Virus record (IMG/VR): IMGVR_UViG_2537561934_000004
Direction: 5' to 3' (one strand)
Length of the DNA stretch: 33,799 nucleotides
From: a virus
Lineage: Duplodnaviria; Heunggongvirae; Uroviricota; Caudoviricetes
Position 1 is the first letter of the stretch; each line of letters starts with the position of its first letter. Under the pieces are notes generated by a model, which was given only the letters and a program-made list of their open reading frames with translations, did no database searches and had not been told where the DNA came from. Made by a program: the position numbers and the translations under genes. Shown here piece after piece: positions 12,081 through 33,799 of this stretch.

Positions 12081-12114
12081 AACACATGCTCCTCCTTTTC
12101 CTTTATATCAGGTT

Positions 12115-12138
12115 AAAAGGCGGTCTGAACCGCCTTTT
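12115..12138 (-). terminator. Stem-loop immediately downstream of the major head gene (possible attenuator)
   Basis: AAAAGGCGG-TCTGAA-CCGCCTTTT: 9-bp GC-rich stem, with a T-run on the minus-strand transcript, located 9 nt after the head gene stop. Confidence 0.4.
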
Positions 12139-12146
12139 AATGACGG

Positions 12147-21725: not shown

Positions 21726-21796
21726 GCTTCCCTGAAAAAATGCGCTGATGGCAGTCTAAAAAATCAGATGGCAGGTGCGGGATTATGGTGACAGGA

Positions 21797-21823
21797 AATA
21801 ACCGGCAGGATGCCGGTTATTTT
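21797..21823 (-). terminator. Hairpin overlapping the C stop codon (possible middle-transcript terminator)
   Basis: AAATAACCGGCA-GGA-TGCCGGTTATTT, an 11-12-bp perfect inverted repeat spanning the C stop, with U-rich flanks. Confidence 0.35.
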
Positions 21824-29031: not shown

Positions 29032-31020
29032 TTAAATGGCTTTTTTACGTCTGTTCTGTTCCAGAATATCCAGCGAATGATTCAGATATTCATCACGCTC
29101 AGTTTCGTATTCATCATCACGCTCCTGATTCTTCACCCGTTCCGTATTACCGGAAGGCCGGAAAATGCCGACAATTCGTGATTCTGGTGCTTCAGGTTCG
29201 GCTATCTGCGGCAGCAGCTCTGCCACTTCCAGTGCATCCATTTGTTTCTGTGCCTTAATCGCTGCTTTCGTCGCAGATTTCAGTTGTTTCTGGCGGCGGC
29301 GATATTCACGGCCTGCCGCAGCATCATTAAACGCAACAGGTGCCAGACATTCCGCTTCACAGATAAACCGACCGTCCAGGGTGTAACAATAAACCGTGCT
29401 GTGTAGCTGCTGCGGATCAAACCTGACCACAACTTTTTTCACGCCGGCATTCATTAATGCCATGTTGTAATAAACGTTTTTCGCGCCTTTAAGGGAGCCG
29501 CCAACTTTAAGCGTAAACTCGCCTTTGCGTGAAACGTTCACCGCCTCGGCAGGCAGTAACAGCATCCGTTTTTGTTCTTCGGTTGGCTTACGCACAATCG
29601 TTCTGGCGTATTCACGCTCGAAAACATCATCAAACGAGAGTTTGCCCCCGCACATTTCTGTTTCACGGCCTGTTCTGGCATTGAACATCGCCACACCTTC
29701 GGCAAGGTTTTTCAGAAACAGCTCTGCATCAACAGCGCGGTTGCCATAGTTATCAGGTTTTGCCTGCGGATTTGGCCCCGTATATGCGCCAGCCAGTGCC
29801 GGATGCTTATCAACGTATTCCTCAAGCCCACCAACACCGAAAGCACGTTCAACAGGTTTTGCCTGGCCCCAGCCTTTACCGGCAACAACGCTTGTCCAGT
29901 GCATTTTCGCACCCATCAGTAAAAACAATCCCTTTGGATCGTCTTCTTTCACCTTAAAGCGGTAGCGATTGGGCGCGCCTCCCGTCAGCCATTTATTCGC
30001 AGCACCACGGGTGTTATCAATGGTGATGTGAAAATCCTCCGGGATACCGTAGCGAGTCACAACATCCATGAACGAGAGGCGAATTGAATCAATGTTCTCG
30101 CTCACATCGCAGCGCCAGCCCAGAATTTTTCGGGTTTTCACATCCTGCCAGAACCATGTTTTCGGGCGGATCACATCACCGTTAAACCAGCGTACAAAGA
30201 CGTTATGCAGATAACCGTCGCCGTTGATCCACTGCATGGCGTCCAGGTGTTCCACAGTTCGCTGCTGTGCCGGTATCAGATGCATCAGTGCATGTTCACC
30301 TTCACGACAGGCAACAACCATTGCCTCGTCCAGTTGCTGAATCCGGCGAAAGGCCGTGGCACGGGAGGGAATACTCCAGCCATGCTCGCGGGCTGCCAGT
30401 TCCAGACGCTCATAACATTTGCGGAAGGCGGGTTTTTCCGGTCGCAGATAATCTGCAATCAGAAACTGCCAGGCATCCTCGTCAAATTCACTTTTGTGAA
30501 CATTGCGACGGGATGCACCACGTCCATCAACAAGTGCAGCCGCCCAGTCAGGCTTCGCAAACTTCTGTACCTGGTAATACTTGTCCCGCAAAGTGGATGC
30601 GCTGACCTGGTAATGCCCTGCAACGGTCGCAAAAGCCGTTTTCGTTGAAATCCCCTGGTTCAGCATTTCGTCTGCAGCCTGAACCGCAGGCAACCATTTT
30701 TCAGCAAGTCTGCGCTGGGAATCGCTGGCTTTATCCCATTTGCTCCACAGCACCTCACGATCATAATCATGGGCTTCCAGCGTGGGGCGGGCGATTTCAA
30801 AACGGCCCAGGCTTGTTTCAATTCTCCCTTGTTGCAACAGAATTTCAGCACGTAATGCGACAGGGAATGATTTGATATTGAATTCAAATGATACACCTTT
30901 AGTCCCTGCAACCTGTCTGAACTCCCAGCCTTCTCTTTGTGCCTTACGTGTAATGTTAGTGGCTTGCTTTGGTAAACCTGCCAAACCGAGCAACTCTTTT
31001 GCTGTATACCATTCTTTCAT
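29032..31020 (-). CDS. A: DDE transposase MuA
   Basis: 662-aa ORF. Acidic residues at D268 (WINGDGY), D335 (HITIDNTRG) and E391 (KPVERAF) sit one residue before MuA D269/D336/E392. The C-terminus ends QNRRKKAI, the MuA tail recognised by ClpX. Confidence 0.95.
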
Positions 31021-31027
31021 AGCGCAC

Positions 31028-31249
31028 CTAGTATCGAGACGGCCAAATATCTTGCGGTGTCATTCCCAGTGCATCTGCAATGATTTTCTCCGCTTTCGGA
31101 TATCTCTTATCCAAAGCATTTTTTAATGTTGAAGACGAAAGATGATTAGATCTTCCCAATTCAGCTAGTGACATATTGCGTTTTCGTAGCTCTGCAACGA
31201 TGTCAGCTCTGTGCCAATCTTGGCGGTTAGTTCTTTTATTCATATGCAT
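31028..31249 (-). CDS. ner: Ner-like DNA-binding regulator
   Basis: 73-aa ORF between the operator region and the transposase; ends ...[14 protein letters not shown], resembling the Ner/Nlp family C-terminus as I recall it. Confidence 0.8.
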
Positions 31250-31434
31250 TTCATGTAATCCTTTCAGATTCCCCCGCGAGCTACGCTATAAAGTAGCTCA
31301 CGGCATATCGTGCAATGTAGTGTGGAATCACTTTCAAATCAATAGTGATTTGAAAGGATTTGCCATGATTTCATATAACAGCATGATTTTTATATGAATT
31401 TATTTTGTCTCTATTGAAATCACTAGGATTTTAA
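31250..31434. promoter_or_regulatory. Divergent early/repressor promoter and operator region (expected to overlap the transposition enhancer)
   Basis: 185-bp gap between divergent ner and c, about 0.95 kb from the left end. Contains an 11-bp perfect inverted repeat CTTTCAAATCA-ATAG-TGATTTGAAAG at 31331..31356 and AT-rich tracts. Confidence 0.6.
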
Positions 31435-31959
31435 ATGATGTCTTTTGAAATCAAAGAATGGTTTAATGCGAAAGAGCTGGAAGGGATGCCTGGTGTACCA
31501 AAGTTGGCGACTAACATTACCAGGAAAGCTGTGGCGGAAGATTGGGTAAAACGTCAGCGTCACGGTGGGAAAGGTGTCGCTTATGAGTATCACATCAACA
31601 GTCTGCCAGAAGAAACACGCAGGGCCATTAAAGGAGCCTCACTTTCTGATAAACCAGTGCATACATCAATCGCCCATACAGTTGATGAGAGGCTAATTTA
31701 TGCAATGAGCTTCTTAACACCAGATGAGCAGGCCGCAGCTGTGGAGATCATTCGTGTGGCAGGGATTAAAGGACTTATGCCTACAATTGTCAGTAAAGAT
31801 AAGGCATTAGAGGCATTAGGGATTACTGTGGAGCAACAGAAAACCCTGCAAACTCTTCAGGCATTACCACCGGAAAAAGTGAGAGAGATTTTGTCTCAGT
31901 ATGAAGGCAAAGAACATAATTTCCCTGTAAGAGAAAACGATGTAAAGAAAGCTGTATAA
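31435..31959 (+). CDS. c: Mu-type repressor (c)
   Basis: 174-aa ORF divergent from ner. Its N-terminus ([61 protein letters not shown]) parallels the transposase N-terminus ([60 protein letters not shown]). Confidence 0.8.
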   Translation: MMSFEIKEWFNAKELEGMPGVPKLATNITRKAVAEDWVKRQRHGGKGVAYEYHINSLPEETRRAIKGASLSDKPVHTSIAHTVDERLIYAMSFLTPDEQAAAVEIIRVAGIKGLMPTIVSKDKALEALGITVEQQKTLQTLQALPPEKVREILSQYEGKEHNFPVRENDVKKAV

Positions 31960-32124: not shown

Positions 32125-32298
32125 GCTTTTCGTGTCTTTAATGAATCAAAAGCTGTTTCCAACAATCTTTCGCGTTTCAAGATGTAACGGCTAAAATCTG
32201 TCCTACAGGCTTGCAAGCCCCACTAAATCTAATCCCGCCAAATCCCGAATAATCCAATGTCCTCCCGGTTTTTTTCGTACTTCAAGTGAATCAATACA
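32125..32298 (-). repeat. Prophage left end with three MuA-binding repeats (L1, L2, L3)
   Basis: On the minus strand: L1 TGTATTGATTCACTTGAAGTACGAAAAAA (32298..32270), L2 CATCTTGAAACGCGAAAG (32184..32167), L3 TGATTCATTAAAGACACGAAAAGC (32148..32125). All carry the (A/C)CGAAA(A) core and the spacing (about 0-28, 114-131, 150-173 bp from the end) matches Mu attL. Confidence 0.8.
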
Positions 32299-32706
32299 CC
32301 CGATTATATTTCCCGCTACGGGAAGCCAGAAACGATCGACGATTTAAAGCAACATATTTGCCTGGGATTCACTGAACCCGCTTCCCTCAATACCTGGCCG
32401 ATAGCCCGTAGCGATGGACAATTACATGAGGTGAAGTACGGTTTGTCATCCAATAGTGGGGAAACACTGAAACAGCTTTGCCTGAGTGGCAACGGGATTG
32501 CGTGTTTGTCCGACTACATGATCGACAAAGAAATCGCTCGCGGAGAATTGGTGGAGTTAATGGCAGATAAAGTGTTGCCAGTGGAAATGCCATTCAGTGC
32601 CGTCTATTACAGCGACCGTGCGGTAAGTACGCGCATCCGGGCTTTTATCGATTTCCTTAGCGAGCATGTAAAAACAGCTCCCGGAGGAGCTGTCAGAGAG
32701 GCTTAA
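32299..32706 (+). pseudogene. yafC: LysR-type regulator gene (yafC-like) truncated at its 5' end by the prophage
   Basis: The frame translating ...[56 protein letters not shown]... is open from the prophage junction to the stop at 32706. It has no start codon or N-terminal helix-turn-helix; only the C-terminal effector domain remains. Convergent with dkgB as in E. coli. Confidence 0.75.
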
Positions 32707-33506
32707 TCCCATTCAGGAGCCAGACCTTCCGGGCTAACCAGGCGGTCGTTGCAATCCAGTGCGGCGATCGCTTTTTTATCTTCGGCATCAAGCTGTAAAT
32801 TTTGTGCCTTAAGATTACTTTCCAGGTTTTTACGTTTAGTAGAAGAAGGAATTACTGAGTAACCTTCCCCCATAGCCCACGCCAGAATCACTTGTGCCGG
32901 AGTCGCATTGTGTTTAGCTGCGATACGAGCAATAACCTCATCTTTCAGGGCCTTACCATACGCCAGCGTCATATAGGAAGTAATATGGATGCCGTGCTGT
33001 TTAGCCCAGGCAACCACTTTACGGTTTTGCAGATAAGGAGAGAGTTCAATCTGGTTAGTAGCGATGTTTTCAGCACCAACAGCAGCAATCGCTTTTTCCA
33101 TCAACGGGATCGTGAAGTTGGAAATACCGATCTCACGCGTCAGCCCTTGTTTTTTGGCTTCCAGCAGCGCCTGCATAAACTCTTCAACAGAGACTTCATC
33201 GTTTGGTGACGGCCAGTGGATTAGCGTCAGATCAACATAATCGGTACGCAATTTTTGCAGGCTCTCTTTCAGACTTGGGATCAATTTGTCTTTGCTGAGA
33301 TTTTCAATCCAGATTTTAGTGGTGATGTAGAGTTCATGACGTGGCACGCCACTTTCTGCAATCGCCTGACCTACTGCGGCTTCGTTATCATAGATTTGTG
33401 CGGTATCAATTGCGCGATAACCAAGTTCAAGCGCCGTTATCACAGATGAAATAACAACGTCGTCTTTCAGACGGAAAGTACCTAAACCAAATGCAGGGAT
33501 AGCCAT
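32703..33506 (-). CDS. dkgB: Aldo-keto reductase, 2,5-diketo-D-gluconate reductase B
   Basis: 267-aa [21 protein letters not shown]... with aldo-keto reductase motifs ([27 protein letters not shown]); length equals E. coli DkgB. Confidence 0.9.
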
Positions 33507-33628
33507 AATATGCCTCTTTTAATGCTATTTTCGTTAACTGAGGTGATTATGGGCTTCAGACTGTTGAGGAAAAAGAGCGTAAAATGCAGAGGATTTTTGC
33601 GATTCTGGCAATAATAGATATACAGACG

Positions 33629-33656
33629 AAAAAAAACCTCGAGCGTTAACTCGAGG
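33629..33656 (-). terminator. Rho-independent terminator downstream of tRNA-Asp
   Basis: Minus strand reads CCTCGAG-TTAACG-CTCGAGG followed by TTTTTTTT, about 12 nt after the tRNA 3' end. Confidence 0.7.
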
Positions 33657-33668
33657 CTTCTTAATAAG

Positions 33669-33745
33669 TGGCGGAACGGACGGGACTCGAACCCGCGACC
33701 CCCTGCGTGACAGGCAGGTATTCTAACCGACTGAACTACCGCTCC
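33669..33745 (-). tRNA. aspU: tRNA-Asp (anticodon GUC)
   Basis: Minus strand reads GGAGCGGTAGTTCAGTCGGTTAGAATACCTGCCTGTCACGCAGGGGGTCGCGGGTTCGAGTCCCGTCCGTTCCGCCA (77 nt, encoded CCA), anticodon loop CUGUCAC. The symbol aspU is inferred from adjacency to dkgB; it could be another Asp copy. Confidence 0.9.
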
Positions 33746-33799
33746 ACCGAATTCTTTTACAACCACCGGTTTTATGACCGGCTTACTGCTTAATTTGAT

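Follow-up and report, generated by a model that had tools for sequence, protein, structure and literature searches.

How is a perfect inverted repeat lying between the ner and c genes of a Mu-like prophage to be explained: as an operator (and if so, for which protein), as a pair of promoter elements, or as a structure formed in DNA or RNA? The question was raised by a sequence-only reading of the 33,799-nucleotide stretch of DNA analysed here, the whole of which is referred to as the window. That reading had put the repeat forward as a candidate repressor or Ner operator in a divergent promoter region, within an interval that in Mu overlaps the transposition enhancer.

The ner-c interval and its palindrome

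The window carries a D108-like (Mu-family) prophage in E. coli. Its segment 31000-32300 was found to be 99.1% identical to the left end of Escherichia phage D108 (GQ357916), with c, ner and A in the D108 gene order, and 86% identical to Shigella phage SfMu; positions in D108 are obtained by subtracting the window position from 32299. The placement of the palindrome between ner and c was borne out by this identity and by the coordinates of the two genes, which are divergently oriented and separated by an intergenic region of 185 bp. The left end of the prophage was located at 32298, where it interrupts the LysR-family gene yafC of E. coli. Beyond it are found dkgB (32703-33506, minus strand) and a tRNA-Asp gene (33669-33745, minus strand), and this bacterial flank (32298-33799) is 100% identical to several E. 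coli genomes. In the GenBank record of D108, the transposase end sites are the only sites annotated, without operators, and in that of Mu the promoters are annotated and operators are absent. The phage genes that bear on the palindrome are as follows.

31028-31249, minus strand: ner, 73 aa, first gene of the predicted Pe transcript.
31435-31959, plus strand: c repressor gene, 174 aa, the N-terminal Mu-type winged-helix domain of its product being the presumed ligand of the palindrome.
29032-31020, minus strand: transposase A, of which the N-terminal 65 codons (30826-31020) would encode the presumed second ligand, with the enhancer function.

The two 11-bp arms and the ATAG spacer that had been described proved to be exact. 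Positions 31326-31360 read AATCA-CTTTCAAATCA-ATAG-TGATTTGAAAG-GATT, with arms complementary at 11 of 11 positions, and the partial symmetry claimed for the flanks (AATCA/GATT) is likewise present: AATC at 31326-31329 faces GATT at 31357-31360, shifted by an unpaired A at 31330. The palindrome proper is made up of three parts.

31331-31341, plus strand: left arm, inner sub-site B, CTTTCAAATCA, with an invariant AAATCA core at 31336-31341.
31342-31345, no strand: central spacer, ATAG (ATGA in SfMu-type alleles), with the dyad centre at 31343/31344.
31346-31356, minus strand: right arm, inner sub-site B', TGATTTGAAAG, which is CTTTCAAATCA on the minus strand; GATTTG (31347-31352) is invariant and the outer GAAAG varies, GATAG, GGAGG and GAGAG being among the right-arm alleles.

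The palindrome is not due to chance. With inverted repeats counted when the arms matched perfectly over 11 nt or more and the loop did not exceed 10 nt, and with dinucleotide shuffles as the control, 0.0018 would be expected per shuffle of the 185-bp ner-c region, and 0.12% of 5000 shuffles contained any. Over the entire window, the expectation is 0.15 per shuffle and three were observed. The other two, at 12113-12140 (TTAAAAGGCGGT-CTGA-ACCGCCTTTTAA) and 21796-21822 (AAATAACCGGCA-GGA-TGCCGGTTATTT), have GC-rich stems with A/T runs on either side and resemble bidirectional intrinsic terminators.

Half-site repeats and the proteins predicted to read them

The arms of the palindrome are two copies of an 11-bp unit, yTTTnAAATCA, with AATC at its core and a 5' flank rich in T, which recurs within the interval. 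A scan for additional half-site copies, proposed together with the palindrome, was productive: in 211 bp there are eight copies of AAATC, where shuffles of that AT-rich region give an expectation of 1.4, and TTTNAAATC is present in four copies in the interval against 0.06 expected, with only seven in the whole 33.8-kb window. Besides the arms, copies of the motif were found at 31324-31330, 31357-31365, 31427-31435 and 31444-31452. In the first of two clusters, which are 80 bp apart and are termed here O2-like and O1-like, four AATC-core sub-sites lie between 31324 and 31365 at a spacing of 11 bp, two pointing rightward and then two leftward. These four sub-sites lend meaning to the partial symmetry that flanks the palindrome, and they indicate a functional unit that extends beyond the 11-bp arms. 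The elements that accompany the arms are listed below.

31324-31330, plus strand: outer sub-site A, GGAATCA, its AATC core 11 bp from the core of B.
31357-31365, minus strand: outer sub-site A', GGATTTGCC, which is GGCAAATCC on the minus strand, its core 11 bp from the core of B'.
31412-31453, no strand: second (O1-like) cluster, TATTGAAATCA-CTA-GGATTTTAAAT followed by CTTTTGAAATCA, with three AATC-core sub-sites; it overlaps the c start codon.
31376-31388, minus strand: IHF-like site, AATCATGCTGTTA, one mismatch to WATCAANNNNTTR, midway between the clusters, with its centre at -75 from the predicted +1 of Pe.

One-mismatch matches to the IHF consensus were no rarer than chance across the window, and the match at 31376-31388 is not significant alone. 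Judged by the order and spacing of its elements, the interval has the layout of the Mu O2-IHF-O1 operator/enhancer arrangement. The proposal of a Mu-like repressor operator/enhancer interval is thus favoured by the two repeat clusters around an IHF-like site, as in Mu (PMC3145075), together with the overlap of a predicted -35 element described below.

The repressor and the transposase of the prophage have a DNA-binding domain in common. Both c and the first 140 residues of A match PF02316 (E = 3e-51 and 1e-42), and c is 55% identical to the N-terminal domain of A over 60 residues. The c protein also matches the solved I-alpha domain of MuA (1TNS; E=7e-8) and the Mu repressor-DNA complex (1G4D; E=6e-4), and Ner matches PF13693, Mu Ner (1NER) and EnrR. 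The likely ligands of the palindrome are the c repressor and the N-terminal domain of the transposase, not Ner.

This assignment was examined with 27 related loci drawn from IMG/VR, E. coli genomes and the protein database, comprising D108, SfMu, E. coli prophages, IMG/VR contigs, and relatives from Morganella, Salmonella and metagenomes; a scan of genome contigs with the c protein as query returned no match. At every locus of D108 specificity among the 27, the arms are complementary at 9-11 of 11 positions (the value for L009, 9/11, being recounted from its sequence). The perfect 11/11 allele is found in the window, in three IMG/VR contigs and in E. coli JCKP02. The palindrome of D108, TTTTTAAATCA/TGATTTGAAAG, pairs at 9/11, the full symmetry of the window being due to C at 31331 and 31335 where D108 has T. 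Perfect symmetry is therefore allele-specific rather than conserved. The invariant positions are AAATCAATAG (31336-31345) and GATTTG (31347-31352), which correspond to the AAATC cores, and the outer positions of the arms vary.

The symmetry of the flanks is more extensive in some relatives. In SfMu-type loci the outer sub-sites are complementary at 11 of 12 positions, and in L025 each arm reads GTGGAATCATTT(A)AAATCA and the flanks extend to a 19/20-nt inverted repeat. SfMu-type and D108-type loci are identical in residues 1-62 of c and 79% identical in their intergenic regions, and the segments that survive between the two types are the AATC cores, Pe and a GAGCTAC dyad discussed below. The recognition helices are near-identical among phages of the D108, SfMu, L027 and L025 types, all of which retain the AAATCA cores. 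A different combination was observed in a Mu-like Salmonella enterica prophage (L024), the c protein of which is 57% identical to that of the window. Its TNITRKA has changed to ANSISRKA and SSAISRKA in the helices of c and A, and at the corresponding places of its own interval (1296-1520) are found ATTCA-type repeats, such as GATTCATTTTCAATTCAAT and AATTCATTTTCAATACGCA, instead of AAATCA. Given that helix and repeat have both changed, the palindrome motif tracks the DNA-binding domain common to c and A. The L024 prophage is apparently of a separate immunity type.

Taken with homology to Mu and with the footprinting reported for D108, from which binding is argued, the palindrome is very probably the inner half-site pair of an O2-type operator in a Mu-family prophage of D108 immunity. 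Conservation matches the half-sites better than promoter hexamers, GATTTG (31347-31352) being fixed and TTGAAA (31350-31355) variable. A counterpoint is offered by the outer four to five positions of each arm, which vary freely and would not be expected to do so if the protein read all 11.

Promoters, hairpins and other readings of the palindrome

Position-weight-matrix scans for sigma-70 matches were applied to the ner-c interval and its alleles, and gave two predicted promoters that touch the palindrome.

31314-31342, minus strand: predicted early promoter Pe, with -35 TTGATT (31342..31337), a 17-nt spacer and -10 TACATT (31319..31314), and a +1 placed near 31307.
31350-31379, plus strand: candidate c-direction promoter, TTGAAA (31350-31355), an 18-nt spacer and TATAAC (31374-31379), with its -35 in the right arm and the best sigma-70 score in the interval.

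The -35 element of Pe falls within the left arm and spacer of the palindrome. The offset of Pe from the dyad centre was constant in all nine alleles scanned, including relatives with c identities of 75% and 57%, and both hexamers are invariant in 15 alleles. A simple promoter scan had missed Pe because it matches at 8 of 12 positions, below the threshold of 9/12. The pairing TTGAAA-18-TATAAC is limited to the window and D108-like alleles and is degraded in RIVM, vr013, vr017, SfMu, L027 and L025; since it is not conserved among alleles, a c promoter that shares the palindrome is a candidate only. Hence, of the divergent promoter region that had been proposed, the early side stands on the overlap with the predicted Pe, and the c side is a candidate. 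An alternative c promoter within the Ner dyad (TTCAGA-18-TATAAA, 31263-31292) was considered and rejected, being weak and not conserved beyond D108-type alleles. The Mu promoters PcM and Pe have been described as divergent (PMC3820752).

The positions of these elements raise the notion that the conserved bases are simply those of back-to-back promoters, namely the -35 of Pe and the -35 or an UP element of a c promoter, and that the palindrome is their by-product, with no dedicated repressor site. Consistent with this, the two best sigma-70 matches of the interval place their -35 hexamers in the two arms, TTGATT at 31342..31337 and TTGAAA at 31350-31355. The plus-strand promoter, however, is the one lost in most of the alleles as given above, and the invariant bases of the right arm (31347-31352) do not coincide with its hexamer (31350-31355). 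Four further copies of the motif, those of the outer O2 sub-sites and at 31427-31435 and 31444-31452, would be left without explanation, as would the change of the motif alongside the recognition helices of c and A in L024. An origin of the palindrome in promoter elements is thus considered improbable.

A second alternative is that the symmetry serves a hairpin. In DNA this would be a cruciform, formed under supercoiling and modulating the promoter or enhancer; in RNA it would be a stem-loop within a long c leader, the transcript of which would begin at a promoter on the far side of the Ner site, as with PcM in Mu. The 45-nt region does fold well, at -17.4 kcal/mol (z = -5.0), compared to -11.4 for D108 and -16.2 for SfMu. 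The complementarity of 9-11/11 is kept in the alleles, and pairs are preserved by one G-C swap (L027) and by a C-G to T-A change (SfMu type). A stable hairpin is predicted for the dyad of each allele type, and symmetry alone therefore cannot separate the readings. Against a selected stem, paired cells amounted to 92.7% compared with 92.0% in a shuffle control, with 114 of 500 shuffles reaching 92.7%; the covariation term from RNAalifold was just -0.4; and about half of the independent arm changes, as counted from the allele alignment, break pairs. The O1-like cluster has the same repeat in arrangements that are unable to pair. Moreover, there is no T-run 3' of the stem, a terminator scan was negative at the palindrome, and an Rfam search of the palindrome gave only a sub-threshold chance match. 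A hairpin function is accordingly regarded as quite improbable.

The non-randomness of the palindrome, its repeat architecture, its overlap with a predicted promoter, the pattern of its conservation and the DNA-binding domain shared by c and A are established by the sequence. A third alternative would assign the palindrome to a host nucleoid protein (IHF, Fis or CRP) instead of a phage protein. In its favour are the AT-rich composition of the palindrome and its place upstream of a promoter, and both IHF and Fis take part in the Mu control region (PMC3820752). No match to WATCAANNNNTTR with at most one mismatch occurs inside the palindrome, the sole intergenic one being that at 31376-31388, and the motif varies across relatives with the recognition helices of the phage c and A proteins. 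Assignment to a host protein is consequently highly improbable.

There remains Ner. A second dyad with features of a Ner site was found close to the palindrome.

31274-31303, no strand: Ner-type dyad, CCGCGAGCTAC-GCTATAAA-GTAGCTCACGG, its spacer 8 bp long and rich in A/T, which corresponds to positions of about +5 to +34 in the transcript predicted from Pe.

Its arms are complementary at 11/11 in D108 and at 10/11 in the window, the latter because of a C at 31277 where D108 and 14 other distinct alleles have T. In the form CCG(T/C)GAGCTAC-N8-GTAGCTCACGG, it is nearly invariant across all alleles. The D108 Ner operator is said, in work of 1989, to consist of two 11-bp inverted repeats 8 bp apart, and the GAGCTAC dyad at 31274-31303 is what we take that operator to be. 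The L024 prophage, with its changed recognition helix and repeat and a Ner that is 70% identical, keeps a D108-type Ner dyad, ATGAGCTAC-N8-GTAGCTCAT (GAGCTAC-N8-GTAGCTC). On this retention, and on the 1989 description, the Ner operator is assigned to the GAGCTAC dyad and not to the palindrome. The palindrome departs from a Ner recognition dyad at the start of Pe in sequence, spacer and position: it has no sequence in common with the GAGCTAC dyad, its spacer is 4 bp versus 8 bp, and it lies upstream of the Pe -10. That the palindrome is itself the Ner operator, as its 11-bp inverted repeat within the ner-c interval might suggest from the D108 description, has a probability close to negligible, given the other 11-bp inverted repeat with its 8-bp AT-rich spacer just downstream of the Pe start, the unrelated sequences of the two dyads, and the retention of one and replacement of the other in L024. 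Of the two ligands named in the sequence-only reading, then, the repressor type is upheld by a motif that tracks the c/A domain, and Ner is given up in favour of its own dyad.

Known systems, proposed mechanism and allelic variation

Phage D108, the sister of Mu, is a classical model phage, the control region of which was sequenced in 1986 and the repressor characterised in 1991. Its c operators O1 and O2 are reported, in work from those two years, to have an IHF site between them, and in the later study the c protein was reportedly footprinted on two operators flanking that site. The window has the same locus and the same c, ner and A proteins, and its palindrome corresponds to D108 943-968; it differs in having C for T at 31331 and 31335 within the palindrome and a T-to-C change at 31277 in the Ner dyad. 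Converted to D108 positions, the predicted O2 would fall at about 934-975, the IHF-like site at about 911-923, O1 at about 846-887 and the Ner site at 996-1025, with the Pe +1 at about 992. Since this control region was first characterised decades ago, the palindrome is ordinary and not new; it would appear to be already known biology, the core of the main repressor/transposase site over the early lytic promoter. The presumed Ner operator, which is situated 28 bp from the palindrome between ner and c, is likewise an 11-bp inverted repeat and differs in its GAGCTAC core, 8-bp spacer, location downstream of the Pe start, pattern of conservation and retention in L024.

The enhancer of Mu (the internal activation sequence, or E element) contains MuA sites grouped in two clusters, overlapping the repressor operators and with an IHF site in between (PMC3145075), and the order O1-IHF-O2(-O3) has been described (Krause & Higgins 1986; Mizuuchi & Mizuuchi 1989; as summarised in PMC3145075). 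In the window, as in Mu, repeats of about 11 bp form two clusters, and the one nearer the promoter overlaps the -35 of Pe, which is predicted in the window. Between the clusters, Mu has an IHF site and the window an IHF-like match, in both cases at -75 from Pe; the site of Mu (TATCAACGCGTTA, 947-959, with Pe +1 annotated at 1028) has the position and orientation of the match in the window. The repeats of both start with CTTT, and in both phages the repressor and transposase have a common N-terminal winged-helix domain. The repeats of Mu are of the type CTTTTCAGTAA, as opposed to yTTTnAAATCA, a difference in keeping with DNA-binding domains of low identity (28% for c and 46% for A). In addition, the O2 sites of Mu are arranged tail-to-tail or directly, whereas O2 of the window is a head-to-head dyad, and no O3-like cluster was seen in the window between Pe and the Ner site.

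A more distant likeness is to the OR/OL operators of lambda, where dyad repressor sites also cover the -35 of a lytic promoter beside the repressor gene and binding is cooperative across separated operators. The lambda sites are bound by lambda-type HTH dimers rather than by a winged helix, with a long-range OL-OR loop in place of an IHF-bent spacer, and the sites in the window, by analogy with Mu, would double as a transposition enhancer.

How these elements may work together can be proposed for the O2-type operator favoured above, with all protein binding, looping and the enhancer role argued from homology to Mu and from the D108 footprinting literature. In a lysogen, oligomers of the c repressor would bind, through the N-terminal winged-helix domain, to the four O2 sub-sites and to O1 (31412-31453), with IHF bending the spacer between the two. 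Occupation of the left arm and sub-site A by c would cover the -35 and spacer of Pe, and so switch off ner-A-B and confer immunity. Following induction, the N-terminal domain of transposase A would bind the same O2 sub-sites as c; O1-IHF-O2 would then function as the transposition enhancer (internal activation sequence), for which repressor and transposase may compete. Ner would act at the neighbouring dyad (31274-31303), a short distance into the Pe transcript.

The outer arms of the palindrome and the 25 bp that follow form a hotspot of variation among alleles. An alignment of 16 D108-type sequences (otherwise roughly 99% identical; 1002 columns, with L019 excluded as it has no anchor) was found to hold 21 of its 51 variable columns within the 53 bp of 31330-31382, which is 5% of its length (hypergeometric P about 8e-16). 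Some sites in this hotspot are tri-allelic, for example 31331 (C/T/A) and 31346 (T/G/A). Outside the hotspot, both the coding DNA and the intergenic region, with Pe, the Ner dyad and O1, are nearly invariant. The hotspot could reflect relaxed constraint on the non-core positions of the operator. It may alternatively be ascribed to diversifying selection among D108-type prophages on the outer arms of O2 and the adjoining 25 bp (31330-31382), a tuning of the operator rather than neutral drift, which is thought unlikely. Were it so, alleles would differ in their affinity for repressor or transposase, or in the strength of the c promoter, and hence in the set-point of lysis-lysogeny and transposition, and the 11/11 palindrome of the window would represent an operator variant of high symmetry and high affinity.

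What the present analysis adds to the known control region is an explicit model of the sub-sites of a D108-type operator, four AATC-core sites in a two-plus-two arrangement with the proposed consensus yTTTnAAATCA, and a distinction in the allele of the window between the predicted repressor/transposase dyad and the Ner dyad. A passage in one report suggests that D108-type prophages are present in laboratory strains and are inducible by a Ner-like protein (PMC9023278). The natural alleles differ sharply at the outer positions of the operator, and may be used to study how operator strength relates to the switch of a transposable prophage.
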